From an uncultured Gammaproteobacteria bacterium (GTDB lineage: Bacteria; Pseudomonadota; Gammaproteobacteria; UBA9214): a stretch of 64,000 nt of DNA. This document shows positions 4,424 to 62,382 of the stretch, in pieces. Both the position numbers and the translations under genes were made by a program. Location of the stretch: assembly GCA_963824045.1 (NCBI GenBank), contig CAWGNW010000009.1, positions 4,709 to 68,708 on the forward strand, written 5' to 3'. The notes under the pieces were generated by a model. It was not told where the DNA came from and searched no databases. It saw only the letters and a list, made by a program, of their open reading frames with translations. The first letter of the stretch is position 1, and each line of letters begins with the position of its first letter.

Positions 4424-5005
4424 GTGGTGAGATTAATCTTTATGATTTACAGTAAGAAGCGATCGACATATCAAATCCGGATTATATTGCGCGGGCTGCG
4501 CCCGCCGATTTGGCGGGTACTCCAGGTGGCAAGCGACACCCGTCTGGCGGACTTCAATACCGTGCTGCAGGTGGCGATGGGGTGGAGCAATATTCACCTG
4601 CATCAATTCGAATGGCAGGGTATGCGCTACGGTATCCCGGACCCGGACGCTCCCGATGACACGTGCAGGGAGTCCGATTTCTGTCTCGACGAACTGCTGC
4701 TGGAGGCGGGCGACAGTCTGGTATATCGCTACGATTTCGGCGGCGACTGGGTGCACAGGGTTCAGCTGGAGAAGGTCCTGGACTTTGATGAGCGGCTGCC
4801 CCTGCCGCTGTGCCTGCGCGGCAGGCGCGCCTGTCCACTGGAGGACGTGGGCGGGCCTCCCGGCTACAAGGCCTTTCTCGGGACCTTTTCAGACCCGGCG
4901 CACCCGGACCATGCAGAACTGCTGGCATGGATCGAAGGGCAATTCGACCCGGAACACTTCGACGTCGGGAAAACCAACGATGCCCTGGGCCAGTATTGTC
5001 GCTGA
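4424..5005 (+). CDS. Plasmid pRiA4b ORF-3-like family protein (hypothetical)
   Basis: YQIRIILRGLRPPIWRVLQV...FNTVLQVAMGWSNIHLHQFE resembles the PRiA4_ORF3 domain. Confidence 0.55.
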   Translation: MVRLIFMIYSKKRSTYQIRIILRGLRPPIWRVLQVASDTRLADFNTVLQVAMGWSNIHLHQFEWQGMRYGIPDPDAPDDTCRESDFCLDELLLEAGDSLVYRYDFGGDWVHRVQLEKVLDFDERLPLPLCLRGRRACPLEDVGGPPGYKAFLGTFSDPAHPDHAELLAWIEGQFDPEHFDVGKTNDALGQYCR

Positions 5006-5061
5006 TGCGCTGCACCTGTCACAATCCGCTGACACGCCCACGCCGCGCGGCACAAACTAAC

Positions 5062-6741: not shown

Positions 6742-6823
6742 GACCGCTTGCAGCCATGTGCGGCTTCAAACGCTGCCTGCAGGTGTACGCCGACAGCAGG
6801 CTACAGTCACAGCGGATCCCGGT

Positions 6824-7520: not shown

Positions 7521-7616
7521 CGCTGCATGCAGAAGACCGCTGCTGAATTTGTGCTCTGACGCGGTCAGCCGTTTCGGTTAAACTGCATCCCTGTTTTCAT
7601 CCGTAGAGTCGGCCGT

Positions 7617-8471
7617 ATGAAATTCACCGTAGCGGAATTCCACGCCTGGAAGCACAAGAGCGTGACCCTGCTGGGCATGTCGGGCGTTGGCAAGACCCAC
7701 CTGTCGATGCTGCTGCGCCGGCACCACTGGTTTCATTACTCCGGTGACTATCGCATCGGGACGCGTTACCTGGATGAGCCCATCATGGACCTGATCAAGC
7801 AGCAGGCCATGCAGGCGCCGTTCCTGCGCGACCTGCTGCGTCGCGACTGGATCTACATCCGCAACAACATCAAGGTCGACGACCTGGGACCGGTGCTGAG
7901 CTTTGTCGGCAAGCTGGGCAACCCGGAACTCGGCGGGGTGCCGCTGGAGGAATTCAGCCGGCGCCAGGCGCTGTACCGCGAGTCGGAAATTGCGGCCATG
8001 CACGACGTGCCGAAATTTATCCGCAAGGCGCAGGAGATCTACGGCTACACGAATTTCGTCAATGACGTCGGCGGCAGCCTGTGCGAACTGGGTGATCCCG
8101 GGGTGATCGACCTGCTGGTGCGGCATACCCTGATACTCTACATCCGGGTTACCGAGAAATCCGAGGAGGATGCGCTCATCAGCCGGGCCCAGACGAATCC
8201 CAAGCCGCTGTATTACCGGCCGGAGTTTCTGGCCGAGCAGCTGCGGCACTACCTGGAACTGCGCGGGCTGGAGTACGCGGCACAGGTGGAGCCGGATGAT
8301 TTCTGCAGCTGGGTTTTCCCGCGCCTGTTTCACTCGCGCCTGCCGCGCTACCAGGCGATCGCCGAACCGCACGGCTACACGGTGACCTCGCACGAGGTGG
8401 CGGCGGTACGCGACGAGCAGGACTTTCTCGAGCTCCTGGAAAGTGCCATTACCCGCACTGCAGCAGCATGA
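7617..8471 (+). CDS. P-loop NTPase/kinase-like protein of unknown function
   Basis: Walker A motif LLGMSGVGKTHLSML. 284 aa. No further family assignment is possible from the sequence alone. Confidence 0.6.
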   Translation: MKFTVAEFHAWKHKSVTLLGMSGVGKTHLSMLLRRHHWFHYSGDYRIGTRYLDEPIMDLIKQQAMQAPFLRDLLRRDWIYIRNNIKVDDLGPVLSFVGKLGNPELGGVPLEEFSRRQALYRESEIAAMHDVPKFIRKAQEIYGYTNFVNDVGGSLCELGDPGVIDLLVRHTLILYIRVTEKSEEDALISRAQTNPKPLYYRPEFLAEQLRHYLELRGLEYAAQVEPDDFCSWVFPRLFHSRLPRYQAIAEPHGYTVTSHEVAAVRDEQDFLELLESAITRTAAA

Positions 8472-8589
8472 AATCCTGCCTGCGTGAAAAATTTTCCGTG
8501 AAGTACGGCCGCAACCGGCTGCAGGATTCTGTGCTGCCTGCCGGGTGCAGCTGCATCGCCTTGCGCTAGCGAAAGACGACGAGGACGCT

Positions 8590-9672
8590 ATGCCTATCGT
8601 GGCCCACAATGATTTGCCGACCTTTGCCCGCCTGCGCCAGGAGGGACAGACCATCCTGACGCCGGAACGCGCCGTGCGCCAGACTATCCGGGAACTGCAT
8701 GTCGGTGTTCTCAACATGATGCCGGACGCCGCCCTGGCGGCGACCGAGCGGCAGTTTTTCCGGCTGGTGGGTGAGAGCAATCCGATTGCGCAGTTCTACT
8801 TGCACCCCTTCACCCTGCCGGAGCTGCCGCGGGGCAGGCAGGCACAGGCGCACATCGCGCAGTATTACGATACCTTCGATCAGCTCTGTGCCGAGGGGCT
8901 GGATGCACTCATCATTACCGGCGCGAATGTCAGTCATCCGGACCTTTCACAGGAGCCGTTCTGGCAGCCGCTTAACGCGGTGGTGGAATGGGCCGTGGAG
9001 AACGTTACCTCTGTGCTGTGCTCCTGCCTGGCCACGCACGCGGTGATGCAGTTTCACCACGGCATGCGCCGCAGGCCGTTGCCGGCGAAGCGCTGGGGCG
9101 TGTTCCCGCATCGTGTGCTGCAGCCTCAGCATTCCCTGGTGAATGACGTCAATACCCAGTTCGACGTGCCGCATTCTCGCTTCAATGACATCAGCCGCGA
9201 GCAGTTCGAGGCGGCCGGTCTGCATGTCCTGGTCGAGAGCGAAATCGCCGGTGTACACCTTGCCGTCAGCGAGGACGGTTTTCGCGTGGTCTATTTCCAG
9301 GGTCATCCGGAATACGACACCGTATCCCTGCTGAAGGAATACAAGCGCGAGGCGCTGCGCTATGCCGCCGGCGAACGCGACGATTATCCGCCTTTCCCGG
9401 ATCACTATTTCAAACCGCGCGAGCAGGCGATCTTGGACGAATACCGGAAACGCGTTGACCAGGCACGCAAGCGGGGCGAGGCCCCGCCGGTTTTCCCCGA
9501 GGGCCTCGTGGCCGGCCGCGTTGATAACACCTGGCACGATACCGCGGAGGGCATCCTCGGCAACTGGATCGGACTGGTCTACCAGCTGACCCACCATGAG
9601 CGCGCGCTGCCGTTCATGGACGGCGTCGATCCGGCCAATCCGCTGGGGTTTATCACGAGTCCGGCAAGCTGA
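8590..9672 (+). CDS. metA: Homoserine O-acyltransferase (MetA family, homoserine O-succinyl/acetyltransferase)
   Basis: MPIVAHNDLP...ELHVGVLNMMPD...FFRLVGESNPIAQFYLHPF...IITGANVS...HSRFND...YFQGHPEYD is collinear with E. coli MetA. Confidence 0.85.
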   Translation: MPIVAHNDLPTFARLRQEGQTILTPERAVRQTIRELHVGVLNMMPDAALAATERQFFRLVGESNPIAQFYLHPFTLPELPRGRQAQAHIAQYYDTFDQLCAEGLDALIITGANVSHPDLSQEPFWQPLNAVVEWAVENVTSVLCSCLATHAVMQFHHGMRRRPLPAKRWGVFPHRVLQPQHSLVNDVNTQFDVPHSRFNDISREQFEAAGLHVLVESEIAGVHLAVSEDGFRVVYFQGHPEYDTVSLLKEYKREALRYAAGERDDYPPFPDHYFKPREQAILDEYRKRVDQARKRGEAPPVFPEGLVAGRVDNTWHDTAEGILGNWIGLVYQLTHHERALPFMDGVDPANPLGFITSPAS

Positions 9673-10238: not shown

Positions 10239-12146
10239 TCATGGGTCGCCCACGGGGGCTGCAATGGCGTCCGCGACAAGGATATCCACATTGTCCCCGG
10301 TCAGTGACATCAGGAAGGCAACCAGGTCGTCGATGTCGGTGGGGGTGAGGCCCAGTGGCTTGATCAGGGGGTCCAGGTTCGGGTTGGCCACACCGCCGGC
10401 GTTGTAGAATGTCACCACCTCCTGCAGGCTTCCCAGTGAACCATCATGCATATAAGGCGCCGTGAGTGCGATATTGCGCAACGACGGGGTCTTGTACTTC
10501 CAGCGATCAGCCGGGTCCAGGGTGATTTCATAACGTCCCAGGTCATTGCCCGGGTTGGGGATGACGTTGGCCAGCTCCAGGGTTTCGCCGGGTGCAACGG
10601 GGATGCTTGCCGCCACGGGTCTGCTGAAACTGGCCTGATAGCCGATGCCGGTATTGTGCAGTGCGTGATCGGTGAACAGGGCATGTGACGCCTCGAGTGT
10701 ATGGCAGCGACTGCAGCCAGCCTTGCCAGCGAAGAGGCGGAAGCCGCGGACCGCCGCTGCTGTCAGGGCATCCTGCTGATGGCCGAAATACCAGCGATCG
10801 AAGGTGCTGTTGGCAGACACCAGCGTGCGCTCGTAGGCGGCAAGCGCCTTGCCGAGGTTTTCCATGCCGGGTCCCTTGCCGGCGTATGCCGCCTCGAACA
10901 GGCCCCGATAGTCCGGCAGCCCCCTGATGCGTTCGAGCACAAAGCCTACTGACGGGTTGCCCATTTCGTTGGCTGCCAGTAACGGTCCCCAGACTTGCTG
11001 CTCCAGGTTTGTTTCGCGGGCATCATGGAACAGCTGCCTTGCATAGGCCACGTTGTAAAGCGTTGGGGCATTGCGGCGCACGCTGCGGCCCTCGATGCCG
11101 ACGGCCGTGGCCATTTCATTGACCGTGAATCCCTGTTCTGGCACATGGCACATGGCGCAGGAAATCGTGTTGTTGTGCGACAGGCGGCGGTCGTAGAACA
11201 GCTTCCTGCCCAGGTCGACAGCGGACCGGGTTAAGGGGTTGTCAGCGGGTTCCGGAACCGCCGGCAGGCCTGCTGGTGGCGGCTTGACGAACTGGAGCAG
11301 GTCCGCAGCCTTGCCCTGGCGGGTGGCCAGGCTTTTCGAGCGGGTTTGATAATCCGCGGAGGCATAATCGCGCCTGTCATCGCCGGGATCCTGCAAGGTG
11401 GGCCGGGGGCTGCCGGCCAGGCTGACTGCAGCGGGTTCGGCCATAAGGATGGTCTTGATGTCACTCACGAGGGTATCCGGGTGCAGGTACGAAACGCTGT
11501 AGATATTGCGAATGCGCGCCTTCCGGTCGATCAGGTAAACACGCAGGATATGCGACCAGGCACCGGTGGAATTGCCTTCCACATCGACTTCCTTCTTCAG
11601 GCTCTGGCCATAGGCCTGCAGCAGCGGTGTCAGCCTGGATTCCGATTCCGCCGTGAGAAACCACCAGTCGTTACCGGGTTTCAGGAAGGCCTTGCTGTAT
11701 TCGCGCAATACCTCCGGGGTGTCATGCACGGGATCGAAGCTTACGCTGATCAGGCGGACCGCTGCGTTGAGGTCGTCTTCCCGGGCAAGCCGCTGCTGTA
11801 CCTGACCCAGCACATAAGCCGCGAGCGGGCAGCCGTTGCTGTCGTTGCAGGAGGTATAAATGAAACTGAGCACGACAATGCGGTCGCGGAACAACTCATG
11901 CAGAGAATGCTCCACGCCGCTGCTGTCCAGCAGGCGCGCGTCCGCGGCCGCGCCCAGCGCCGGGAGTTCATAGCTGCCGGGGACCGGCGCGGCATACGGC
12001 AGCGGCAGGTAGCCCGGCGCCGGCTCCTGCCCGGTTGCATCCTGGTGCTGGCTATGGCCTGCACACGGAAGCGGCGACGCGACCAGTGTGGCAGCCAGCA
12101 CCCACCACGCCGGTTTGCAACCCTTCCGGCCCCCTGCAAATTTCAC
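10239..12146 (-). CDS. SCO1/SenC (thioredoxin-like copper chaperone) fused to dihaem cytochrome c peroxidase/MauG family domain
   Basis: The N-terminal part has the SCO1 motif FIYTSCNDSNGCPL. The C-terminal part has two haem motifs CAMCH and CSRCH plus a CCP/MauG-like core. Single ORF of 635 aa. Confidence 0.8.
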   Translation of the reverse strand: MKFAGGRKGCKPAWWVLAATLVASPLPCAGHSQHQDATGQEPAPGYLPLPYAAPVPGSYELPALGAAADARLLDSSGVEHSLHELFRDRIVVLSFIYTSCNDSNGCPLAAYVLGQVQQRLAREDDLNAAVRLISVSFDPVHDTPEVLREYSKAFLKPGNDWWFLTAESESRLTPLLQAYGQSLKKEVDVEGNSTGAWSHILRVYLIDRKARIRNIYSVSYLHPDTLVSDIKTILMAEPAAVSLAGSPRPTLQDPGDDRRDYASADYQTRSKSLATRQGKAADLLQFVKPPPAGLPAVPEPADNPLTRSAVDLGRKLFYDRRLSHNNTISCAMCHVPEQGFTVNEMATAVGIEGRSVRRNAPTLYNVAYARQLFHDARETNLEQQVWGPLLAANEMGNPSVGFVLERIRGLPDYRGLFEAAYAGKGPGMENLGKALAAYERTLVSANSTFDRWYFGHQQDALTAAAVRGFRLFAGKAGCSRCHTLEASHALFTDHALHNTGIGYQASFSRPVAASIPVAPGETLELANVIPNPGNDLGRYEITLDPADRWKYKTPSLRNIALTAPYMHDGSLGSLQEVVTFYNAGGVANPNLDPLIKPLGLTPTDIDDLVAFLMSLTGDNVDILVADAIAAPVGDP

Positions 12147-16415: not shown

Positions 16416-16601
16416 TTATGCGGGCAGCTGCGGGGTGTGTAAACGGGTCATCGGGCAGATTATGTTCGACCCGGACAGCCGGCGCAAATCCTCATAAGTA
16501 TTGCTGTTATTGATAAAGGCATGATTTATTTGACCCGCTGCAGCGCGGAACGCTAGGCTGCCTGTTTTGTTTTCGCCTTGCGTACTGAGGATGACAGCCG
16601 C

Positions 16602-17768
16602 ATGCAATCGGGACCCAGGAAGATCGTCACACCATTTCGGCCCATTCCGCTGGACGTGCCGGAAGGCATGTCGCCAAACGAGTTCTTCAACAGCACGGAG
16701 AACCTCAATGACCTGATGCACAACAACGGCCTGTTGATGAACCCGGAAAACCTGTTGCTGTATCGCAAGGCGCTGGGCCACAGCAATCTTTTCGATACCT
16801 CGATCATCTATAACACCTCCAGTTGCATCCTCAATCCGCTGGGACGACCGGTGCGGCGCACCCAGGTACCGGACAACGTCGGGCATGTCTGGAACCGCAT
16901 GAACCAGATCATTATCGAGTTCATGACGGACGAGTATCCGGACCCGCAATCCCACCTGGTGCTGGCCGGTGAGGCCAGCCTCGACGCCACCTGGCCGCTG
17001 ACCTCGCCCGGTGTGCCCAGTATCCGCATGCTGCACAATCATTTCATGGTGTTCAGCAAGGATGAACTGCGCAATGCTGAATCGGCCGACCCGAAGAATC
17101 CCAACCTCACCGACGGCGGCCAGAACAGCCTGTTCGAGGCCTACATGCATGACGTGTACCGCGAGTTCTTCGACAAGGCGCTGGACCTGGAGATGCTCTG
17201 GCCGGTGGGTGAAGGCAGCTCGCGCATTGACCTGACAGGCTACCCGCAGGGCCTGCCGAGCTGGGAAATCCAGGGTGGCGTCGCGGCACTTGAGGATATC
17301 CGTTTCTGGCAGGAATATGATCAGGTCCTGAAGGGATTCATCGATTTCTACCGGACCTTCTTCAGCCAGGTGTCGACCCGCAATGCCCCGATGCTGGCGG
17401 ATGTGTATTTCCCCGCCCAGGTCGAGAGCGTACTGCTGTTCAATAATGATTTCCTGAAGACGGCGAAGAAAGTGCGTGACCGCTGCGTGGTGGATGCCGC
17501 CTATGCCAATGCCATACGCTGGCAGCCGGCCTTCAAGCAGCTTGTCTATCGCAATGACGAAGGCAAGCTGATTGTCACCATCAGCCAGAATTCCATCGGC
17601 AATGCCATCACCGAACTGCTGGGAGTGGTGGTCGAACGTATTCCCGATGCGGCGGGTTATGAACAATATGAACCGCGGCTGATAGAGCAGTTGCTGGAAA
17701 TCCGCCGGCGCCTGGTCGAGGCGGACCTGGGCGAGGGGATAGAAACATCTTACTGGTCTGCGGCCTGA
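16602..17768 (+). CDS. Hypothetical protein (about 388 aa), no recognisable domain
   Basis: Long ORF with non-biased, protein-like composition, in contrast to the Arg-rich antisense ORF at 16416..17822. GAGGA lies 9 nt upstream of the ATG at 16602. Function unknown. Confidence 0.5.
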   Translation: MQSGPRKIVTPFRPIPLDVPEGMSPNEFFNSTENLNDLMHNNGLLMNPENLLLYRKALGHSNLFDTSIIYNTSSCILNPLGRPVRRTQVPDNVGHVWNRMNQIIIEFMTDEYPDPQSHLVLAGEASLDATWPLTSPGVPSIRMLHNHFMVFSKDELRNAESADPKNPNLTDGGQNSLFEAYMHDVYREFFDKALDLEMLWPVGEGSSRIDLTGYPQGLPSWEIQGGVAALEDIRFWQEYDQVLKGFIDFYRTFFSQVSTRNAPMLADVYFPAQVESVLLFNNDFLKTAKKVRDRCVVDAAYANAIRWQPAFKQLVYRNDEGKLIVTISQNSIGNAITELLGVVVERIPDAAGYEQYEPRLIEQLLEIRRRLVEADLGEGIETSYWSAA

Positions 17769-18017
17769 TGCCGGGGGACACTGATTAATCGATGTGGCCC
17801 GTCTTTGCGGGTAGCGAAGCATGCTTTTAATTCATGATCGGCTGGCTGGAAATTGCTTCGCCACTTCGTTTCCCGGTTACTGCTCCTGCGTCACCCTGTC
17901 TCCTGCATCCTTGCAATCGTCGCAATGACTCGCCAATCAGTGTTTCCCGGCGCTGCAGCGCCGGCAGCGCCCTGGTCAGGCGAAACGGTTGTGCCTGATT
18001 CAGGGGACTACAGGTTT

Positions 18018-19098: not shown

Positions 19099-19210
19099 GG
19101 TGGCTTGTACCGGTCCCCCCGCGACGATAAGCTGTGAACCCCGTCAGGCCCGGAAGGGAGCAGCGGCAGCAGTGGACTCGGGCGCCGGGGTGTGGCTGGT
19201 GCAGGTCACC
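19099..19210 (+). ncRNA. ffs: Signal recognition particle RNA (4.5S RNA, small SRP RNA)
   Basis: GTCAGGCCCGGAAGGGAGCAGC matches the conserved domain IV of bacterial 4.5S RNA (CAGGUCCGGAAGGAAGCAGC). The ends GGTGGC.../...GGTCACC can pair. It sits immediately upstream of dnaX, as in Pseudomonas. Confidence 0.7.
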
Positions 19211-19271: not shown

Positions 19272-20897
19272 ATGAGTTATCAGGTCCTGGCGCGCAAGTG
19301 GCGTCCCCGCGATTTCACGGAACTGGTCGGACAGGAGCATGTGCAGCGGGCGCTGGTCAATGCGCTCGATAACGACCGCCTGCACCATGCCTACCTGTTC
19401 ACCGGCACCCGCGGCGTCGGCAAGACCACCATTGCGCGCATCCTGGCCAAGTCACTGAACTGTGAAACCGGCGTCACATCCACGCCCTGCGGCAAGTGCA
19501 GCGCCTGCGAGGAGATCAATACCGGCCGCTTTCTTGACCTGATCGAGGTGGATGCGGCCTCGCGTACCAAGGTCGAGGATACCCGGGAACTGCTGGAGAA
19601 CGTGCAGTACGCGCCAACGCCGCGGCCGCTACAAGGTGTACCTGATCGACGAGGTGCACATGCTCTCGGGGCACAGTTTCAACGCCCTGCTGAAGACGCT
19701 GGAGGAACCGCCGCCGCATGTCAAGTTCCTGCTGGCGACCACGGACCCGCAGAAGCTGCCAGTGACCGTCCTGTCGCGCTGTCTGCAGTTCAATCTCAAG
19801 AGCCTGAGCGTGCCGCAGATCACCGGCCAGCTGGAAAAGATTCTGCGGCAGGAGGCGATTGCGGCGGAGCCGGGTGCCGTGCGCCAGCTCGCCTTTGCCG
19901 CGAGCGGCAGCATGCGCGATGCGCTCAGTCTGCTCGACCAGGCCATTGCCTTCGGTGGCGGCGACCTGCTGGAGTCCGAGGTGCGCAGTATGCTCGGGAC
20001 CATCGACCGCGATGTGGTGTATCGCCTGCTGGAGGCGCTGGCTGCGGGTGATGCTGCGCGGGTGCTCGCGGAGATCCGGAAGGCGGACGAGTTTGCCCCG
20101 GACTACGCCGCGCTGCTGGCGGACACGGTGTCGGTGCTGCAGCGCATTGCACTGGCGCAGACCCTGCCCGATGCCATCGACGATACCTATGGAGATCGTG
20201 AGGCGGTGCTTGCCCTGGCCGGTAAACTGCCTGCCGAGGACGTACAGCTGTATTACCAGATTGCCCTGATCGGGCGGCGTGACCTGCCGCTGTCGCCGGA
20301 ACCCCGGGGCGGTTTTGAAATGGTCCTGCTGCGCATGCTGGCCTTCCGCCCGGATACCGCCGCCAGGGTCGAGGCTTCGGCAGCCGGTACAGCCGCGGCT
20401 GCACCGGTGATGCCTGCGGCAGGCGCAGGCCCCGGCGGGTCCGCCGTGCAGGCCGCGGCGACTGCGACTGTAGCGCCGGCACCCCCGCCGGCGCCTCCCG
20501 CCAGTGCCGATGCAGCAACATGGGCCGGTATCGTGGAGGCACTGCCCGTCAAGGGGATGGTCCGTGAAATGGCGTTGAACTGCGCCTTTCACGGTGTCCA
20601 GGACGATGTTGTGCGGCTTTCCCTGGACCCCGCGCACAAGCACCTGCTGAGTCCGGCGCGTACCCGGCAGCTGGAGCAGGAACTGGCCACATACTACCAG
20701 CGCCCGGTGCAGCTGAAGATCGCAAACGAGGGGCCGCTGGCGAAAGAGACACCGGCACTGAAACGCAGCCCGCGAGCAGGTCGAGCGCCAGCAGCAGGCT
20801 GTTGCATCGATCGAGAATGACGCCAACGTCAAGGCGATTACCGGATGCCTTCGGCGGCGCCGTCAGCACGGATTCAATCCGGCCGCGGGATACGTAA
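19272..20897 (+). CDS. dnaX: DNA polymerase III subunits tau/gamma, interrupted by three apparent single-base indels (near 19617-19628, 20761-20772 and 20839-20848)
   Basis: Frame 1 reads MSYQVLARKWRP...GTRGVGKTTIARILAK...LENVQYAPT. Frame 2 reads RGRYKVYLIDEVHMLS...LLATTDPQKLPVTVLSRCLQFNL... The C-terminus RQAAREQVERQQQAVASIENDANVKAIT / DAFGGAVSTDSIRP is only recovered by two further frame changes and matches the E. coli tau C-terminus AIIADNNIQTLRRFFDAELDEESIRPI. Confidence 0.85.
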
Positions 20898-50149: not shown

Positions 50150-50631
50150 GACTTCCCCCGTCTGACCGCATAGCAGCTTATATATACCCGAAGATGTCAT
50201 GAGGAGTATCAGGGCAGTTGCAATTTGCGCAACAAACACCTGCCCGAACAGGCATGATGATTTCATAGTGATCTACCCGAAAACCCTGCCCGTTTCTGGA
50301 TTTACAGCCAGAAATTTGTTGTTGATTCTTGACTGTTATCCCAACCATATCCCAACAGCATATCCACCATCAGGCTCTGATAGATTCAGGATGACACATA
50401 TACCGCGTTATCAGTTCGCAGATGTTCCAAACGGGTCGTTACCCGTCCTTCAATGTAATCCTGTACCAGAAAATCCTCCAGGGCCGGGTTCGGGCAGCTT
50501 CTTGTCGTTCTTCAGATTCGGTCGCGTTTCTGAAAAGCAGCAACCCCGGTCTTTTGGCAGCTGGAGAAGTTGAAAAAGAAAACATTGGGATGATCCACAA
50601 TGAGGGCTTGATCAACTGGTCCTTGATACAA

Positions 50632-50922
50632 TTAACTGGACACGAGCTTATCAACTTCCTGCTCTGCCTCGACCCAGTCCTGCAACTCGCCCCCTGGTTC
50701 GAACCCCCTGTTTTCTGCCTTATGGTAGGCAGTGATGGCAATCATCTTCCAGCGTTCCTCTGGCGAAATGTTTATCGACGATATATCCGGCATGGAGGTG
50801 TTTGCGGGGTTCTTTGCGACCTTTCTCGTGGTGGTTTTCTTTACGTTGACTGCCTTTTTCTCGGGCACTGCTTCCTTGGCAGCTTTCTTCGTGGAAGATT
50901 TCTTTTTGATAGGGGGATTCAT
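50632..50922 (-). CDS. DUF2934 domain protein with Lys-rich N-terminus
   Basis: C-terminal EERWKMIAITAYHKAENRGFEPGGELQDWVEAEQEV matches the DUF2934 consensus. AGGAGA lies 6 nt upstream of the ATG. Confidence 0.7.
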   Translation of the reverse strand: MNPPIKKKSSTKKAAKEAVPEKKAVNVKKTTTRKVAKNPANTSMPDISSINISPEERWKMIAITAYHKAENRGFEPGGELQDWVEAEQEVDKLVSS

Positions 50923-51767
50923 GACACTCTCCTGTCAGTTGATGGTAGACACTCTGGTTTGTTGAAAACAGGTGGAGACATTGAGGGTTCCTGTACTCGT
51001 ATGTCGCCAAGGTTACTTTTGTAAAAAAAACGCATTATCCCACCAACAACCCGGGATGTCTTGCCTTGCTCGGGTATGCAGTTCCGGTGACTCAACCCGG
51101 GAAGAGTATGTTCCCGTGTGTGCACCGGGTCAGTATGTCGTGAGTGCCGGGAAACGATCGTGTGTACCCTGTCTTTGCGCAAGGGCGCATGCTCCAGAAT
51201 CACAATAACTTGCCCCTTTCCCGGGTCCCCGGCCTGCTTCCGGCGGGGCACTGCGATCATCCTTTTCGAAAGACTGTTGATCCCGTTCCGCCATGTTTCC
51301 ATTCCTCCCTGTTTGCGTTCCTTGTTCAGGGCTTCGCGCCAGCCGACATCCCGGGCGAGTCGAATCGGCACAGTATACTCAACCCTGTCAGCACCTTGCC
51401 AGGTGTCGAGTGTTTTATGCCCCTTTATAGACCGTGTACAGGAAACATAGCCGACGCATCTCGAGACAATCCAGCCGATAAACGGGGTGGATTCAGCGGT
51501 TATATCCTGTTCAGTCCAGGGGCGATATTCCCCGGGTTCCCGTGAAGGCCAGGTAAGTACCGGCAGACCTTCGGTTTCTGCCCACTATCTGGTAATACCG
51601 GCAATCAGCCTGCAGGAGTTGGCGGGGGTCGGTGGATGGCAGTCGGACGAAATGTCTTGCGGTATCCCGTTCTTGCACAGGAGCAGCTGGCATGCGCGGC
51701 GGCTCGTATTGAGATGCCGCCGGGGACCGTCGCGAATCACACTGCGACTGCGCTGCGCCAGAAAAGC

Positions 51768-51800
51768 AAAAGGCCCGCACCAGGATGCAGGCTTTTTACT
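51768..51800. terminator. Bidirectional rho-independent terminator downstream of the Gly/Tyr-rich protein gene
   Basis: AAAAGGCCCGCAccaggaTGCAGGCTTTTT: a stem flanked by an A-run and a T-run. Confidence 0.45.
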
Positions 51801-51910
51801 CTATGGTACGCCCGGTGTATCCGTGGCTGACTGGTCGGTCAGCTTTTGCCCCCGGCATTACTGCACAGGCATATTTCCGGACCTGTTTACCCGGTACATT
51901 CTGTTCGGTC

Positions 51911-52297
51911 CTATTCAGGCAGCCTTGGTGGAGGGGCGGCTTGCTCTGCGCCACTTGTCGGGTTTACAACAATGGTCCTCTGCTGCCCGTAACCACCATA
52001 ACCACCATAACCGGGATAGCCACCATAACCACCATAACCACCATAACCGGGATAGCCACCATAACCACCATAACCGGGATAGCCACCATAACCATAGGGT
52101 CCACCTCCGTAGCCGTAGGGTCCATAGCCTCCGTAATCACGGTCATAATACCTGTGATGATCATTGTCATTGTTAAACCACTTGTCCGGCTTCATCATGT
52201 TGCCCATATCGAAGGCCTGCGCGACATTCGCCGCAGCGAGAATTGTCATGCCAAGGGCAGTTCCTGTTGCTACTGAAATGATTTTTATCCGATTCAT
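51911..52297 (-). CDS. Secreted glycine/tyrosine/proline-rich low-complexity protein
   Basis: Signal peptide MNRIKIISVATGTALGMTILAAANVAQA, then DRDYGGYGPYGYGGGPYGYGGYPGYGGYGGYPGYGG... GAGGT lies 8 nt upstream of the ATG. The DNA underneath is a near-perfect tandem repeat (ccaccataacc-type units). Confidence 0.55.
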   Translation of the reverse strand: MNRIKIISVATGTALGMTILAAANVAQAFDMGNMMKPDKWFNNDNDHHRYYDRDYGGYGPYGYGGGPYGYGGYPGYGGYGGYPGYGGYGGYGGYPGYGGYGGYGQQRTIVVNPTSGAEQAAPPPRLPE

Positions 52298-52646
52298 TAC
52301 GGTTACCTCATGGTTGCCATTATTTAACTCGAACCCGGGTTCAAGCAGTTTAACCAGTAATCAGGTGGGCCAGGTGACTGTGCATATCTTCAAATGAGCT
52401 GACTTCCACATATACCCGCTTATAAAACAGACAGCCATACTGCATGATTTACAAACATATTGCATGGTAATCTTGTGCAACGCTGCCTTGGTGGCAGGTG
52501 CCATGGAAAATCCCTGCCGGAATAATATTTGCCCTGCGTCTGGGGACAGTGTAATCGAAATCCCTTGTCGGGTAATTCCTGAAGGGCTATAAGTCAGTTT
52601 GCGCCCCTGGTTTATCGTATTAAACAAAGCCGGTTCGGGGATAATA

Positions 52647-53387
52647 ATGAAATATCTGTATATTTTTATGATCCTGAGCCTGCCTTTGATCTGTCGGGCA
52701 GATACCTATGAATCCACACTGCTGGTACAAACCGGTGAAATGCGAGAGGGTGACCTTATCGTGCGTACCGTCACCGATCTGGAAAGCAGCAGGATCTGTC
52801 TGGCATTTTATATTCGAACCACTGGCACGAGCCCCGTGATGAACTGTTACGATGCTGTTTCCGGATATGCTTCCAATATCAGTCAGGTCGGGAACTTCAA
52901 GGAAGAACAGCTGATTGTCCGTAAAATAAAGGATACCCTGAACGACATATCCTGCCTGGTGGCTTACGTGGGTACGCCTGGAACCTCTCCATCCATAGAC
53001 TGTTACAAAAGCAGGAAGTCCGCCACTGATGAGCTGGTGCGAGACGGGCACCTGCGGGAGGGCGATCTCGATATTTACCGGGTCGTGGACAAGGATAGTA
53101 CAAAGACCTGTCTGGTTGCCTATGTCTCTACCAGTGGTACCGCACCTTCACTGAAATGCTATAACAGCAATTCGGGAGGCAAGGGCGGACTGGTTCAGAG
53201 CAACTCTTTACGCAAGGGTGACCTCATTGTGCGCAAGATCGTCGATCACGCCAACCGGGAAGAATGTCTGATTTCCTATGTCAGTACAGAGGGCACTTCT
53301 CCGGGTATCAACTGTTTCGATGCTGTTTCCACTCCCCTGCGCAGTGTTCCTCCAACAGTATCCATCCCGGTTAGCCCGAAGCGTTGA
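52647..53387 (+). CDS. Secreted protein built from four tandem ~52-aa repeats (GDLIVR-x-V-D-x5-CL-x-YV-x-T-x-GTSP-x3-C[YF]), no known family
   Basis: Signal peptide MKYLYIFMILSLPLICRA. Four repeats each carry two conserved Cys. The gene lies in a lower-GC island. Confidence 0.6.
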   Translation: MKYLYIFMILSLPLICRADTYESTLLVQTGEMREGDLIVRTVTDLESSRICLAFYIRTTGTSPVMNCYDAVSGYASNISQVGNFKEEQLIVRKIKDTLNDISCLVAYVGTPGTSPSIDCYKSRKSATDELVRDGHLREGDLDIYRVVDKDSTKTCLVAYVSTSGTAPSLKCYNSNSGGKGGLVQSNSLRKGDLIVRKIVDHANREECLISYVSTEGTSPGINCFDAVSTPLRSVPPTVSIPVSPKR

Positions 53388-53985
53388 GTTCAACAGCCTG
53401 AATTGACGGCTGCACTTGATCCGGTTCGCCACGTTCTGCCACCACAACCCTGTCTTGCCCTGGAATGTCGACTTGCAGTTGCGAGATTGCGCTAAGGAGG
53501 AGGGTATTTATATCCCGGCAAATGTGGCGATGGCGGCAGGCTGGCGATCAGCGTTTCCCATGCACGTGCCGGCAGCAGGTATAACACGGCAGGCTTGTCA
53601 ATGTCCGTGCCGAACACCGAATCCCGTACAGGAAGACACGTGTCGGGGTCAGGGAGTGCAGAACTTCTTTCCACCAAACCTCACGATGAACAGTAAAGGC
53701 AGCGGAAACAAGATAAAAATTGTTCCTCTTTGGAAACCGATTCCATCCAGGAAGGCTTCCCTGTGACAGTTGCCTGCTACAAGAACAGGACACTCCCCTT
53801 GATCAGGCATGTACTGTATTTAATTTTTAAAAAACAAGGCAATACATTGACTGCCCTGATCCCCCGGTGTTCGGTGAACAAGCATATAGAGCTGAAATGG
53901 CCGGGCAGCGGCGCTGTTTGCCAGGCGCAGTCGGGTGTAATGGAGCGGCGGAGAGGTTCGACGCTCCGGGGAGCGTACTGCGCAA

Positions 53986-54011
53986 TGAAAAACGGCGACC
54001 CGGAGGTCGCC
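53986..54011 (-). terminator. Orphan rho-independent terminator (minus strand)
   Basis: Perfect 7-bp stem GGCGACC-cgga-GGTCGCC. Read on the minus strand it is followed by TTTTTC. No convincing CDS lies upstream of it on that strand. Confidence 0.4.
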
Positions 54012-54260
54012 GCGTAATGAATCCCCACCGTGAAAAAAGCACAATGATGTGCAAAAAAGCAGTGCGGACGAACTACAGGATAGCAGCTGGCAAATTGCAG
54101 TAATATTGTGGAGACTACGTAGCGTGAGGAATAAACTCCGGAAATCGCCTGACTGAACACATTGGCAGTAACCTGTGGATGGTATTCCGGCCATGCGTAA
54201 TAAATTCGCGGCTGCCAGTAATGCTGCGTACCTGCACCGATACCTTCAGGAAAATACCTC

Positions 54261-56504
54261 ATGTTGAGAAACCTCCTGTACCGCCTCCGTGCCGGCCGGT
54301 TGCCGGCCGGCTTGCTGGCTGCACTTGCAGCGTGCACCAGCCACGCTGCCGACTATGTCGGCGGCGAGGTTTGCCGCGGTTGTCATGCGGCGGAGTACAG
54401 CGCCTGGCAGGGCTCCCCTCACGACCTGGCCATGCAGACGGCAAGCGAGGCGACCGTACTGGGAGATTTCGACAATGCCAGTGTGACCCACTTCGGCGTG
54501 ACGACCTCCTTTTACAGGAAGGATGGCCGGTACATGGTTCGTACCGAGGGTCCGGACGGCAAGCTCCATGACTACGAAATCAGCTACACCTTCGGTGCCG
54601 TGCCGCTGCAGCAGTACCTGATCAAGTTCCCCGGCGGCCGCATGCAGGCGCTGAGCCTGGCCTGGGACAGCCGGCCGGAAGCGCAGGGCGGGCAGCGCTG
54701 GTTTCATCTCTATCCCGACGAGCAGATCAGCCACGATGATGAGTTGCACTGGACCCGACTCCGGCAGAACTGGAACAGCATGTGCGCGGAATGCCATGCA
54801 ACACACCTGGAGAAAAATTATGACCCGGTCGCCAGGACATTCGCGACCACGTGGTCGGAGATCGACGTGTCCTGTGAGGCATGCCATGGACCCGGCTCGG
54901 ACCACGTGGCGTGGGCAGGGCGCAAACCGGGTTGGGAAAAACTTGATGCCGGCAAGGGGCTGGCAATCGCGCTCGACGAACGCAAGGGTATCCAGTGGAA
55001 GATCGACGCGGCAAGTGGCAAGCCCGTTCGCAGTGAAACCCGCAGCAGTGTTCGGGAAATCGGGATGTGCGCCCGCTGTCATGCACGGCGCAGCCCGATA
55101 AGCACTGGCTATGTACATGGCGAGCCGTTGCTGGACCACTATCTCCCGCAGCTGCTGGAAGCCGGCATGTATTACCCCGATGGCCAGATTGAAGACGAGG
55201 TCTACGTCTACGGGTCATTTGTCCAGAGCCGGATGTACCATGCCGGTGTCACGTGCAGTGATTGCCACGAGCCGCACAGCTCGGCATTGCGGGTCGCCGG
55301 CAACGGCGTCTGCCTGCAGTGCCACCAGGCGGAAAAATATGATCAGCCCGGCCACCATTTCCACAAGCAGGAATCAGCGGGAGCGAGCTGTGCCGAGTGC
55401 CATATGCCGCCAAGGACCTACATGGTGGTCGACCCGCGCCATGACCACAGCATGCGCATTCCGCGCCCGGATCTGTCACTGAAACTCGGCACGCCCAACG
55501 CGTGCAACAATTGCCATAAGGACAAGGATGCCGGGTGGGCTGACACGCAGGTCAGGAACTGGTATGGCGCTGCACCGCAGGGTTTCCAGAGATTCGCACA
55601 GGGACTGTACGATGCACGGCATGATGCCGCGTCTGCCGGCACCACCCTGGCCGCGCTGATTCGGGACACGGAAACCCCTGATATTGCACGTGCGACTGCG
55701 CTTGCCGCGATAGGCCCGTACCTGGGTGCCGCCACGATTGACGTACTGCCGCTGGCGTTGTCGGATCCCGATCCGGGCGTGCGCGCGGCGGCTGTGGGCC
55801 TGCTGGAGCAAACGCCGTTGAACGTCCGGGTGCGTCTCGCCTTCCCGATGCTCGATGACCCTGTGCGCGCCGTGCGTATAGAAACCGCACGGGTGCTGGC
55901 GTCGATTCCGGCCGGCGAGCTGTCGACGCAGCAGCAGGCATCACTGGATGCGGCGCTGCAGGAATATGTCACGGCCCAGCAGGCCAGCGCGGAGCGGCCC
56001 GAGGCACAGACCAATCTCGGCAATCTGTATGCGATGCAGGGTAAGGAGGAGCAGGCGGTTGCCGCATATAACACGGCGATTGATCTTGATCCCGCCTATG
56101 TCCCGGCCTATGTGAACCTGGCTGACCTTTACCGCGCCGTGGGAAAGGAGGTGGACTCCGACAAGGTGCTGCGCCGGGCGGCCGTGATCGTGCCGGAAAA
56201 TGCGGCCATACACTATGCGCTGGGTTTGTCGCTGGTGCGGCAGCAGCGGACTGGTGAGGGTCTTGAGGAACTCCGCGAGGCTGTAACCATGAGCCCGGAG
56301 GATGCGCACTATGTTTATGTTTACGCGGTGGCGCTGAATTCAACCGGGAAGCCGGAACAGGCAATCCTGGTGTTGCAGGGCGCGTACAACCAGCACCCGA
56401 ATGACCGTGACATTCTGGGCGCCCTGGCAGCGTTCCACCGTGACATGGGGAATGAGGATGCGGCACGTGTCTATGCCGGGAAGTTGCGTGCGCTGGCGCC
56501 CTAG
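54261..56504 (+). CDS. Octahaem c-type cytochrome (cytochrome c554/multihaem family) fused to C-terminal TPR/HEAT-like repeats
   Basis: Signal peptide plus eight CXXCH motifs (CRGCH, CAECH, CEACH, CARCH, CSDCH, CLQCH, CAECH, CNNCH). TPR repeats occupy the last ~250 aa. Confidence 0.85.
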   Translation: MLRNLLYRLRAGRLPAGLLAALAACTSHAADYVGGEVCRGCHAAEYSAWQGSPHDLAMQTASEATVLGDFDNASVTHFGVTTSFYRKDGRYMVRTEGPDGKLHDYEISYTFGAVPLQQYLIKFPGGRMQALSLAWDSRPEAQGGQRWFHLYPDEQISHDDELHWTRLRQNWNSMCAECHATHLEKNYDPVARTFATTWSEIDVSCEACHGPGSDHVAWAGRKPGWEKLDAGKGLAIALDERKGIQWKIDAASGKPVRSETRSSVREIGMCARCHARRSPISTGYVHGEPLLDHYLPQLLEAGMYYPDGQIEDEVYVYGSFVQSRMYHAGVTCSDCHEPHSSALRVAGNGVCLQCHQAEKYDQPGHHFHKQESAGASCAECHMPPRTYMVVDPRHDHSMRIPRPDLSLKLGTPNACNNCHKDKDAGWADTQVRNWYGAAPQGFQRFAQGLYDARHDAASAGTTLAALIRDTETPDIARATALAAIGPYLGAATIDVLPLALSDPDPGVRAAAVGLLEQTPLNVRVRLAFPMLDDPVRAVRIETARVLASIPAGELSTQQQASLDAALQEYVTAQQASAERPEAQTNLGNLYAMQGKEEQAVAAYNTAIDLDPAYVPAYVNLADLYRAVGKEVDSDKVLRRAAVIVPENAAIHYALGLSLVRQQRTGEGLEELREAVTMSPEDAHYVYVYAVALNSTGKPEQAILVLQGAYNQHPNDRDILGALAAFHRDMGNEDAARVYAGKLRALAP

Positions 56505-59971: not shown

Positions 59972-60331
59972 TTACTCCCCCGCACCAAAGGCATTACGGA
60001 TCCACTCTATCGATTCGTCCGGGCCGCCGACAGATATCACGTCAAAGCGGCACGGCTGTTGCGCGATTTCGGGATAGGCCTGCATATAGGTCTGTGCGCA
60101 GGCGATGAGTTTTGACTGCTTGCGCCGGTCGACGCTTTCCGCGCCCGAACCAAACCGGGATTCGCGGCGGTAGCGTACCTCGACGAATACCAGGCTGTCC
60201 TGGTCCTGCAGCACCAGGTCGATCTCCCCGCGGCGGCTGCGAAAGTTCCGCTGCAGCAGACGCAGTCCCCTGGACTGCAGGTACTGCCAGGCACGGGTCT
60301 CGGCCTCCCTGCCGCGGGTCGTGGTATCCAT
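59972..60331 (-). CDS. yraN: YraN family (UPF0102) putative endonuclease
   Basis: GEIDLVLQD...LVFVEVRYRR...RFDVISV. Confidence 0.75.
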   Translation of the reverse strand: MDTTTRGREAETRAWQYLQSRGLRLLQRNFRSRRGEIDLVLQDQDSLVFVEVRYRRESRFGSGAESVDRRKQSKLIACAQTYMQAYPEIAQQPCRFDVISVGGPDESIEWIRNAFGAGE

Positions 60332-60333
60332 GT

Positions 60334-62259
60334 TCAGAATGCTGCTGGCGCCGCAGCGTCTGTGGTGTCCCTGGCGGTTTCCAGCAGCACCGGCATGCCG
60401 TTTCTGAAGCGTGCACATCGCAGGCTGCGGTTGATCACCCCGCGGTTGTCCAGGGAGAGATTTCCGGTGACGCCGTGGTAGGCGCCAAACATGCTGCCCC
60501 CGAGTTCACCCAGGTAGGGGACGATGCGCCAGGCATCGATGCCCAGTGCATACAGCCGGGAATAGCGCGTTGCGTTCGGGCCCCAGTATTCGCTGATGCC
60601 TTGCTGCAGGTGTTTCCAGTTGTTGCCGCTGTCCAGCACCCAGGGCATGTCGCAAAAGGTGATGCCATCCATGTCTGCATCCGTGGATGCGTTCGGGGTA
60701 CCGCCATATACCTGGGAGGTTGCGTAGACCGGCACACTGGTGGCCCGGAAAAAACTCAGTTGCGGGCGAATCAGGCGCGCCTGCCCGGGGGAGGCTACCA
60801 GGAAAATCATGTCCACGTCCTGGCGGCGGCGGGGTTCAAAGTCCAGCTGGCGCCCGAGATGTGCGGAGAGCTGCTTGTGGCGGGCAATGCTGTTGTCGAG
60901 GTTCAGCGCGGCGCTGATGACCTTGCTGTGGTCCGTTTTGGCGGACTCGTAGCGTTGCGTTTCAAGGATAACACCGCCGAGAGACTGCCATTCCCCGGCG
61001 AAAGCCGCATAGACCCGTTCTCCCCATTCGGTGTCGGGCAACAGCGCGACGCAATGGGTGTAGCCTTCTCGCCATGCCCGCCTGGCCGCTTCGCGTGCCT
61101 CGTCCTCGGGCGCCAGACCAAACTGGAAGCGACCCGTGGTATCGGGCAGGGCTGTTTCTATCTGGTTCAGGGCCAGCACCGGCACCGGCAGGGCCGGCTG
61201 GCTCAATACGGCCTCAACCGCTTCCTTGCGCAGCGGGCCGATCACGAATTCAGCACCCTCAGCAACGGCCTGCCGGTAGCCGGCCAGGGCGGTTTCCGGC
61301 AGGTCGCCGCTGTCGTAGATACGCAGCTGCGGCTGCACTCCCGGCGCCGGGGTGTCGTAGTAGGCCGCGAGGACGCCGTCACGCACCGCGCTGGCGGCGT
61401 CGGCCAGGGTTCCATTGAGGGGCAGCAGCAGGGCGATGCTGGCGGGTGGCCGGCCGGCCTGGCGCATGGTATCCAGCAGTCTGGCGACGAATGCCGGGCT
61501 GGCGGGGTGGCCCGGATAGCGTTGCTGCCACTGCGGAATGACAACCGCCAGCGCGTCCGGCTGCTGCAGGTACAGGCGCGTCAGTTCCATCAGCTCCAGC
61601 CAGCCGCTGAGCGCGTCCGGCGGCGGTGCGCTGCGGTATTGCTGCAACTCGGCATCGGTCAGGTTGTTGAGCGTTTCCCACAATTGCGTGTTGTTTTCCA
61701 GCTGCGCGTCCGAATCCTGCAGGTTATTGCCCAGCAGCACGCGTTCCCTGGCGCTCAGCAGGTACTCCGACTTTTGCGCGTAGGCGGCGGCACGCACGCG
61801 GTGGTATGCGGCGATATGCGGACCGCTGGCAGGTACGCTGGCCAGCAACGCCAGGGCAATGTCGGGGTGTTGTTGCGCGACGGCGATTGCGGCCCGGTTG
61901 AGGTCGTAGAGCTGACCGTCTGTTGCATCCAGCATCATTCTCGGGATGGCATCCAGCAGGCTCTCCGCGCGCAACAGGTCGTCACCGCGAATCAGGATGG
62001 CGGCGGCCTGCAGGTTAAGATGGTATTGTTCCGGCGGGACCGCCCGGGCTGCTGCCTGCAGGTAGACTTCCGCCGCACCCTGGTAGTTGCCGGCAGCCTC
62101 CAGTGCTACGGCCTGCAGCTGCAGGTGGTCATCGGCCGCCGGTGCGCCGGGGCGAATTCCACCGCTGCAGCCGACCAGCAGCACTGCCGCCAGCAGTACT
62201 GCCGCCAGCAGTTGTTGGCGAAACGGCGCCAGGCATGCGTTCAGGGTCGGGAGCGGCAA
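60334..62259 (-). CDS. lpoA: Penicillin-binding protein activator LpoA (lipoprotein with TPR N-domain and periplasmic-binding-like C-domain)
   Basis: Lipobox LLVGCSG. Its size and the conserved lpoA-yraN-diaA-dolP order support the call. Confidence 0.75.
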   Translation of the reverse strand: MPLPTLNACLAPFRQQLLAAVLLAAVLLVGCSGGIRPGAPAADDHLQLQAVALEAAGNYQGAAEVYLQAAARAVPPEQYHLNLQAAAILIRGDDLLRAESLLDAIPRMMLDATDGQLYDLNRAAIAVAQQHPDIALALLASVPASGPHIAAYHRVRAAAYAQKSEYLLSARERVLLGNNLQDSDAQLENNTQLWETLNNLTDAELQQYRSAPPPDALSGWLELMELTRLYLQQPDALAVVIPQWQQRYPGHPASPAFVARLLDTMRQAGRPPASIALLLPLNGTLADAASAVRDGVLAAYYDTPAPGVQPQLRIYDSGDLPETALAGYRQAVAEGAEFVIGPLRKEAVEAVLSQPALPVPVLALNQIETALPDTTGRFQFGLAPEDEAREAARRAWREGYTHCVALLPDTEWGERVYAAFAGEWQSLGGVILETQRYESAKTDHSKVISAALNLDNSIARHKQLSAHLGRQLDFEPRRRQDVDMIFLVASPGQARLIRPQLSFFRATSVPVYATSQVYGGTPNASTDADMDGITFCDMPWVLDSGNNWKHLQQGISEYWGPNATRYSRLYALGIDAWRIVPYLGELGGSMFGAYHGVTGNLSLDNRGVINRSLRCARFRNGMPVLLETARDTTDAAAPAAF

Positions 62260-62382
62260 TCTGCATAGATTAAGGAAACGACAAAAGGTTGCGGTGACTC
62301 TACTGAAAACCCGCTAGCACGTCCACCTCAAAAACAGGCGCGGCAGTATGCCGCCGTGAATATTTGCTAGGATGGGTGCACC

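Follow-up and report, generated by a model that had tools for sequence, protein, structure and literature searches.

We analysed a 64,000-nucleotide stretch of DNA from an uncultured gammaproteobacterium (contig CAWGNW010000009.1, positions 4,709 to 68,708; hereafter the window), which carries at 52647-53387 a gene for a tandem-repeat protein that we refer to as REP4. REP4 consists of a signal peptide followed by four β repeats of 52 residues each and a Pro-rich tail, and its gene lies divergently next to that of a Gly/Tyr-rich protein, referred to below as the partner. The features at the locus, with the evidence for each in brackets, are as follows (window coordinates).

51773..51792, minus strand: hairpin followed by a T run, resembling an intrinsic terminator, ~120 nt 3' of the partner stop codon (consensus scan only)
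51911..52297, minus strand: partner gene, 128 aa (translation, family alignment, adjacency)
52431..52467, no strand assigned: tandem operator-like element, ACAGCCATACTGCATGA and ACAAACATATTGCATGG, 20 nt apart (conserved block in the intergenic alignment)
52647..53387, plus strand: REP4 coding sequence, 246 aa plus stop codon (open reading frame (ORF), translation, homologues, ratio of nonsynonymous to synonymous substitution rates (dN/dS))
52647..52700, plus strand: predicted Sec-type signal peptide of REP4, residues 1-18, MKYLYIFMILSLPLICRA (hydrophobic N-terminus and A-x-A-like site; predicted cleavage)
52716..52871, plus strand: repeat 1, residues 24-75, Cys51 and Cys67, four predicted β strands (alignment, AlphaFold2)
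52872..53027, plus strand: repeat 2, residues 76-127, Cys103 and Cys119 (alignment, AlphaFold2)
53028..53183, plus strand: repeat 3, residues 128-179, Cys155 and Cys171 (alignment, AlphaFold2)
53184..53339, plus strand: repeat 4, residues 180-231, Cys207 and Cys223 (alignment, AlphaFold2)
53340..53384, plus strand: variable Pro-rich C-terminal tail with a basic last residue, predicted to be disordered (predicted local distance difference test (pLDDT), alignment)

A conserved pair of genes

The REP4 frame opens with the ATG at 52647, and its stop codon ends at 53387. Comparison with five orthologues gave dN/dS values of 0.10-0.13, indicative of purifying selection, the N-termini of the homologues all begin at the Met encoded at 52647, and a GGGGA Shine-Dalgarno sequence lies ~5 nt 5' of the ATG. 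For these reasons we regard the ORF as coding. A longer ORF with a TTG start (from 52599) and an antisense ORF (52620-53051) were set aside as by-products of mechanical ORF listing. The hydrophobic N-terminus suggests that REP4 is exported via Sec, and Ala18, at the predicted cleavage position, is invariant across the orthologue alignment. Identity as a lipoprotein was rejected, since the sequence departs from the lipobox pattern [LVI][ASTVI][GAS]C: L-P-L-I-C has Ile at -1, and C16 is replaced in several orthologues. The mature protein would have a mass of ~24.7 kDa. Residues 231-243 have pLDDT values below 50 in the AlphaFold2 model, and the same tail is variable in the alignment.

The partner comprises a signal peptide, the motif AFDMGNMM(K/N)P..WF, a stretch rich in Asp, Arg and Tyr, a series of (GPYGYGG/GYPGYGG)n repeats, the motif (S/R)TIVVNP and a C-terminal PPPRLPE. 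In its mature form it is 100 residues long (~10.8 kDa), with 30% Gly, 19% Tyr and 11% Pro, and it is a low-complexity and probably largely disordered protein. At least 387 proteins, all unnamed, belong to its family. Three short motifs (N-terminal, STIVVNP and C-terminal PRLPE; as peptides FDMGNMMNPSRWF, PSTIVVNP and PPPPRLPE-COOH) are invariant within the family, while the G/Y/P repeats between them vary in length. Two further ORFs listed in the window, 51487-52276 (plus strand) and 51964-52170 (minus strand), are alternative frames of the DNA encoding the G/Y repeats and were rejected as genes. Such false ORFs carry HNHHN and ITTITG or VMVV repeats, and similar ones cluster across 40-59 loci.

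The partner is divergently adjacent to REP4 in all 15 loci that lie in genomes or on long contigs (15/15). It was found likewise in the six genome loci retrieved with REP4 (6/6) and on contigs of REP4 homologues that are 68-85% identical. Reciprocally, a search begun on the partner side, with its most divergent homologues (33-50% identity), led each time to a divergently adjacent REP4 homologue (60-64% identity), and loci reached by this route are among the 15. A metagenome scan contributed 80 further loci, 66 of them with enough upstream DNA, and the partner was present in 65 of the 66: 56 contain the strict motif, 7 contain motif variants, and 2 contain recognisable partner DNA whose correct reading frame was not recovered. 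The sole metagenome locus without a partner upstream of REP4, L046, has a divergent relative of it downstream:

L046 4134-4424, minus strand: divergent partner relative downstream of REP4, AFDMCKDMFGKMNQSEW..., with few G/Y repeats and a SHOCT C-terminus (Pfam, E = 1e-7)

One metagenome-assembled genome (MAG) holds two complete modules, L001 (CAVOZZ010000005.1) and L005 (CAVOZZ010000012.1), whose REP4 proteins are 89% and 81% identical to that of the window and each of which has its own partner, indicating that the two genes were duplicated together. When all flanking ORFs were clustered, no further gene proved to be conserved with them; the next real cluster was present in at most 15 of 96 loci. 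Taken together, these findings establish REP4 and its partner as a strictly conserved two-gene module. This obligate Gly/Tyr-rich neighbour is the most informative feature of REP4, and it was overlooked in an earlier description of the same DNA, referred to here as the sequence-only reading.

A second type of Gly/Tyr-rich paralogue lies directly after REP4 in several loci. Only the AFDMGNMMNPSKW motif is common to it and the main partner; that motif stands at its N-terminus, ahead of (PGYGYGGx)n repeats, and the tail (REAEIRRLKERLRQLE) is coiled-coil-like. Examples are:

L002 6758-7345, L012 8758-9345 and L013 from 1455, plus strand: second paralogue type (also in L027, L029, L032, L033 and L037)
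L075, L077, L079, L084 and L088, minus strand: second paralogue type, 2.5-3.3 kb downstream

At L012, the gene caller chose the strand opposite to this second paralogue.

The region between the REP4 and partner genes contains the element ACAACCATATTGCATG in two copies of 16-17 nt, 20 nt apart, with dyad half-sites of the TACAA/TTGTA type. These two copies are the only matches in the 64-kb window, where 0.1 would be expected by chance. The pair is found at the same position in 57 of 80 loci, and at least one copy occurs in 41 of the 42 loci of the clade with at least 75% identity, compared with 3 matches outside the intergenic region in ~0.5 Mb of flanking DNA (both strands). The element is not present in the GC-rich, most divergent loci (L014-L017, L083, L085 and L091). 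The pair looks like the operator of a common regulator. A scan for sigma-70 promoters and terminators gave sites no commoner than in shuffled sequences, a repeat finder applied to the intergenic region returned nothing useful, and Rfam gave no match near the REP4/partner locus.

Repeat architecture and predicted fold of REP4

Self-comparison of REP4 gave a repeat period of exactly 52 residues. The score at a shift of 52 was 259 over the whole protein, and the best-shift score of the core was 287, compared with -52 ± 12 (maximum -9) in 1000 shuffles (z ~29). The four repeats are 35-48% identical as protein. Identity at third codon positions is 25-40%, which is near random and argues for ancient duplications, as opposed to recent repeats of the DNA. 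The consensus of the 52-residue unit is ..lvQ.G.lrEgDLiVRk..D..n.k.CL..YVsT.GTSPsi.Cy.s..g.., and strand 2 of repeat 3 has a family-wide variant, DLD(V/I)YR. Cys residues occupy positions 28 and 44 of every repeat and are invariant in 35-36 diverse orthologues, in which the GT(S/A)P loop is conserved as well; removal of the signal peptide leaves eight Cys residues, two per repeat. The sequence-only reading had described a four-fold tandem repeat with two invariant Cys residues and a GTSP turn in each unit, and all of this was borne out. The peptides that it quoted correspond to residues 34-73, 86-125, 138-177 and 190-229; they do align as four units, although the true unit is 52 residues long and what had been treated as a linker is the predicted strand 1 of each repeat.

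That reading had also left the domain unclassified, and our searches concur. Pfam gave no significant match to REP4, the best E-values (0.069 and 0.095) falling far short of the cut-offs, NCBIfam and PHROGs gave no match, and no chain among the PDB sequences matched the REP4 family profile at E ≤ 10. A word-indexed search found 536 homologues, all unnamed and none with a precomputed Pfam domain; the 120 homologues listed are all at least 64% identical to REP4 and ~246 residues long. An exhaustive HMMER search with the family profile against 1.84 billion representatives at 50% identity returned 32 proteins, namely two full-length REP4 clusters, fragments of the same family and one artefact. The artefact, P0150, was the sole non-family protein hit in multiple stretches, and was rejected as a eukaryotic Myb-repeat protein matched through its repeats. 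Distant relatives of REP4 were thus absent from the 1.84 billion representatives, and the match to a known domain with which a profile search might have overturned the earlier claim did not appear. REP4 proteins always have four repeats and are never fused to other domains, proteins with a single repeat or another number being fragments only, and features peculiar to each repeat position are retained from one orthologue to the next. By the measure of these sequence searches, REP4 is one tight family without a match to any described family. A full-text literature search with the conserved peptide motifs gave no paper.

Structures were predicted with AlphaFold2 for the full precursor and for the core (residues 24-228), using an alignment of 35-36 sequences. 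The precursor gave a pLDDT of 82.6 and a predicted template modelling score (pTM) of 0.75; the core gave a pLDDT of 88.3 and a pTM of 0.84, with five models within one pLDDT unit. DSSP applied to two of the models describes REP4 as all-β, with 16 strands, four per repeat. The strands of each repeat are antiparallel and 9, 8, 8 and 6 residues long, and strands 3 and 4 carry the Cys pair. Each modelled repeat is a four-stranded antiparallel β meander, the form that characterizes a β-propeller blade. Consecutive positions of strand 3, C-L-x-[AS]-Y-V, are hydrophobic, so that a sheet buried on both faces would be expected, as in propeller blades. Since REP4 is probably exported, its invariant Cys pairs lie on neighbouring strands and the mature protein has an even number of Cys residues, each repeat is likely to contain one disulfide between strands 3 and 4.

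The models further indicate that the four repeats pack as one compact domain, like blades of a single fold, and the blades may close into a ring. The sequence-only reading had pictured four copies of a small disulfide-bonded β domain. The all-β character, the export and the Cys pairs of that picture agree with our predictions, while the separateness of the domains does not. In its strict form, this alternative holds that REP4 consists of four independent domains arranged as beads on a string, for example as a spacer or stalk, and it would account for the clean repeat, the Cys pair proper to each unit and the degree of identity between units. However, the core pTM and the five concordant models imply fixed packing between repeats, the supposed linkers are predicted to be strands, and the number of repeats is always four, with position-specific peculiarities retained across orthologues and other repeat numbers seen only in fragments. 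We therefore favor a single domain and consider independent domains very unlikely.

Foldseek searches of PDB and BFVD returned β-propellers for nearly all top matches (PREPL/POP (prolyl oligopeptidase), Sec12, WD40, Kelch and BNR), with best E-values of 7e-4 (PDB) and 2e-5 (BFVD); the similarity is weak and local. The Pfam hemopexin repeat did not match REP4. Sugars, ions and components of the cell wall are frequent ligands of small propeller-like repeat proteins, which bind them on one face, and REP4 might likewise be a lectin-like or solute-binding protein of the periplasm or surface, in which case the Gly/Tyr-rich neighbour would be co-regulated only and would not be a physical partner. Such a role fits the acidic or hydroxyl loops (REGDL, D and GTSP), which are conserved and occur four times, as well as the presence of sialidase/BNR and Kelch-type propellers among the Foldseek matches. 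Co-regulation alone, however, hardly explains a reciprocal, near-universal 1:1 adjacency over wide divergence together with duplication of the pair as a unit, and no carbohydrate or transport genes are conserved in the flanks. On balance, we view a binding protein with a merely co-regulated neighbour as rather unlikely.

Genomic setting of the module

The module resides in MAGs of uncultured Gammaproteobacteria (among them CAVOZZ01, CALOCX01, JBATFE01, JAJDNX01 and CAYQDX01), one of which is labelled Ectothiorhodospiraceae. Compared with the essential GTPase Der encoded on apparently the same contigs, REP4 is 85% identical to the window protein where Der is 78% identical, and in a second comparison both are 83% identical. 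By this yardstick, constraint on the REP4 sequence appears unusually strong for a non-enzymatic exported protein. The GC content of REP4 and its GC content at third codon positions (GC3) follow host GC across the clade, which suggests long residence there and led us to reject recent horizontal transfer as a general explanation for the module. At the window locus, REP4 has a GC3 of 0.56, compared with ~0.75-0.8 in neighbouring genes, and lies in a sparsely coding stretch of ~4 kb (50150-54260) with 47-55% GC, between der and the gene of a multihaem cytochrome; the genome has 61-65% GC. The stretch may have been acquired as an island from a relative with lower GC. Its other genes, and the gene that follows it, are:

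50632-50922, minus strand: DUF2934 gene in the low-GC stretch
50919-51371, minus strand: ORF of 150 aa in the low-GC stretch, without homologues in Pfam or PHROGs
54261-56504, plus strand: protein of 747 aa with multihaem cytochrome c (c554/c7/paired CXXCH), HEAT and TPR regions, directly downstream of the module

Variable genomic contexts of the module and the low-GC stretch in the window would be compatible with a bacteriocin/immunity or toxin/antitoxin-like pair, in which a Gly-rich secreted peptide is accompanied by a protective protein; Gly-rich secreted peptides occur among microcins. Against such a pair, the partner has a Sec signal peptide and no double-glycine leader, and no exporter is conserved in the flanks. 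Both proteins are under strong purifying selection with conservation like that of Der, the tracking of host GC by REP4 points to long residence, and PHROGs gave no match. We regard this explanation as extremely improbable.

Upstream of the module, the window contains the housekeeping genes isc, sucCD, rlmN, hisS, bamB and der. None of the window neighbours is conserved with the module. An association with multihaem cytochrome/TPR proteins (the window, L009 and L010) was considered and rejected, because these proteins are not detectably similar and are missing at other loci. In ~10 loci, REP4 is closely followed by a gene for DsbB (Pfam, E = 8e-44; for example L090 1781-2491, minus strand), and L012 has a gene with a DsbA domain close to the module (6183-6821, minus strand). 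These neighbours fit a disulfide-dependent REP4, or they may reflect clade synteny alone.

Elsewhere in the window, a 635-aa ORF at 10239-12146 (minus strand) encodes an unusual fusion of SCO1/SenC, di-haem cytochrome c peroxidase/MauG and cytochrome c, and the sole Rfam match is a bacterial small SRP RNA at 19108-19204 (plus strand; RF00169, 68.9 bits). Large ORFs of 400-718 aa without a Pfam match were found at 4810-6741 (plus), 7578-8780 (minus), 16416-17822 (minus), 19516-20832 (minus) and 60112-62268 (plus); some of them may be wrong-strand artefacts of GC-rich sequence.

Candidate function and comparison with known systems

As the best explanation of these findings, to which we assign a probability of roughly 40%, we propose that REP4 and its partner are a two-protein extracytoplasmic structural module in which REP4 organises the partner into a layer or matrix. 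According to this proposal, the four repeats of REP4, each a meander stapled by its disulfide, would pack into a compact, pseudo-four-fold β-propeller-like domain. The partner, co-regulated with REP4 and exported, would contribute a low-complexity chain with three invariant linear motifs. REP4 would act as the folded organiser, its R-E-G-D-L turn and G-T-S-P loop, present in four copies each, binding at least one of the partner motifs. Such binding would serve as anchor, nucleus or cap for the assembly of the Gly/Tyr-rich partner into a layer or matrix of protein, either periplasmic or at the cell surface. At the core of the proposal, we infer physical binding of REP4 to the partner and a structural or matrix role for the two.

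Several observations weigh against this proposal. Conserved adjacency is a functional link and does not in itself show physical binding. The structural model of REP4 was built on a shallow alignment of 36 similar sequences. Foldseek TM (template modelling) scores did not exceed 0.30, with no global match among the PDB and BFVD structures listed, and four-bladed hemopexin/MMP domains were not among the 50 best-ranked Foldseek matches in PDB for either model. As to a resemblance of the partner to sulfur globule proteins (Sgp), the Pfam family PF17228 (SGP) was unmatched at E ≤ 10 by the window partner and by two of its homologues (P0266 and P0241), and hhalign of the partner family with three Thiotrichaceae Sgp sequences aligned the signal peptides only. 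Finally, neither the window nor the flanks examined revealed any sulfur-oxidation genes (dsr, sox or sqr).

Synteny and conserved linear motifs of this kind would also be expected if REP4 were a periplasmic chaperone or anti-aggregation factor, comparable to CsgC/CsgE for curli, that keeps the partner soluble or escorts it. The extreme low complexity and Tyr-richness of the partner fit this role, and the two genes are apparently transcribed separately, which would allow different stoichiometries. Nevertheless, no secretion or assembly machinery is conserved in the flanks, and conservation over the whole surface of REP4 is at least equally compatible with a part in a lattice or structure. We consider a chaperone improbable.

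Sulfur globule proteins bear more directly on the nature of the partner. They are exported, ~10-kDa, Gly- and aromatic-rich proteins that have been likened to keratin or to plant cell-wall proteins, and each is the product of a single gene that has a promoter and a terminator of its own (PMC10386293). The partner answers this description in being exported, within 8-15 kDa, rich in Gly and aromatic residues, and built of repeats with regularly spaced Pro. As controls, we used Beggiatoa and Thioflexithrix sequences from the supplement of PMC7356093. A motif F-(D/N)-M-x-(N/M)-M followed by an R/G/Y stretch is common to the partner and these Sgp (DFNMSMGGGGRGYGR). The positive control, Beggiatoa ALG67575.1, matched PF17228 (E = 5.2e-6, 27.7 bits), whereas the partner proteins tested did not, and no NCBIfam model matched either the Sgp controls or the partner. 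The failure of PF17228 together with the hhalign result speaks against the partner as a member of the sulfur-globule-protein family; by analogy, the partner may nevertheless work like an Sgp from outside that family.

A stronger version of the likeness holds that the pair is the envelope of periplasmic sulfur globules in sulfur-oxidising sediment Gammaproteobacteria, the partner being analogous to Sgp and REP4 being an extra component. Signal peptide, mature size (~10.8 kDa), Gly/Tyr/Pro repeats and the Met-containing motif are all shared with Sgp, whose keratin-like nature and single-gene organisation agree with it as well (PMC10386293), and one module-bearing MAG carries the label Ectothiorhodospiraceae. 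On the other side stand the lack of a PF17228 match in the partner proteins tested where a Beggiatoa Sgp does match (E = 5e-6), homology in hhalign that is limited to the signal peptide, and flanks in which no dsr, sox or sqr genes were seen. To our knowledge, sulfur-globule systems contain no REP4-like protein. SgpD of A. vinosum (Alvin_2515) is helical, with Pro-spaced repeats, and is restricted to Chromatiaceae (PMC10386293); this description sets it apart from REP4, which is predicted to be all-β, and identity of REP4 with SgpD was rejected. Taking both sides into account, we hold a sulfur-globule envelope in this literal sense to be unlikely. A broader formulation, in which the pair would be a two-component coat or matrix of an uncultured gammaproteobacterial clade, such as the envelope of sulfur globules or of another inclusion, and a disulfide-stapled, four-blade propeller-like REP4 would recognise the short conserved motifs of a keratin-like partner and template its assembly, is speculative and in our view doubtful.

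Taken together, REP4 appears to define a family that is new in sequence and familiar in its type of structure, within a novel two-gene module whose function is probably structural. If this is correct, an undescribed domain family, possibly with an unusual four-blade, disulfide-stapled, propeller-like fold, would be confined to one environmental gammaproteobacterial lineage, and its pairing would offer a concrete, testable way into the extracytoplasmic organisation of low-complexity structural proteins by bacteria. A folded organiser would then join a class of envelopes so far known from low-complexity proteins only. Should the pairing be merely regulatory, REP4 would be one more conserved hypothetical repeat protein.

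Among known folds, the β-propellers (WD40, Kelch, BNR/sialidase and prolyl-oligopeptidase) resemble REP4 in that their unit is a four-stranded antiparallel meander of ~40-55 residues and their repeats make one domain, as predicted for REP4. REP4 differs from them in having only four repeats with an invariant Cys pair within each, and in lacking sequence similarity to any propeller family; its geometry is a prediction with low global similarity (TM ≤ 0.30). Hemopexin-like domains are extracellular, contain disulfides and have four repeats of ~45-50 residues with four strands each. These four-bladed propellers therefore resemble REP4 in repeat number and unit length and, by prediction, in strands, export and disulfides. 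The disulfide of hemopexin domains links blades 1 and 4, in contrast to REP4, where each repeat has its own Cys pair.

For the partner, plant-type glycine-rich proteins (PF07172, GRP) are similarly Gly/Tyr-rich, low-complexity and secreted. Two partner homologues have a precomputed PF07172 match, and one has a score (E = 0.005) short of the cut-off; the match is compositional and sub-threshold, and the conserved terminal motifs of the bacterial partner are missing from GRPs. SgpA/B/C and the Sgp of Thiotrichaceae share more with it, namely a Sec signal peptide, a mature size of ~10 kDa, Gly/Tyr/Pro repeats preceded by a short Met-containing motif, and a stand-alone gene with a terminator-like hairpin, whereas the STIVVNP and PRLPE-COOH motifs are the partner's own. 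The nearest analogy to the proposed assembly would be the Gly/Tyr-rich envelope proteins of bacterial sulfur globules.

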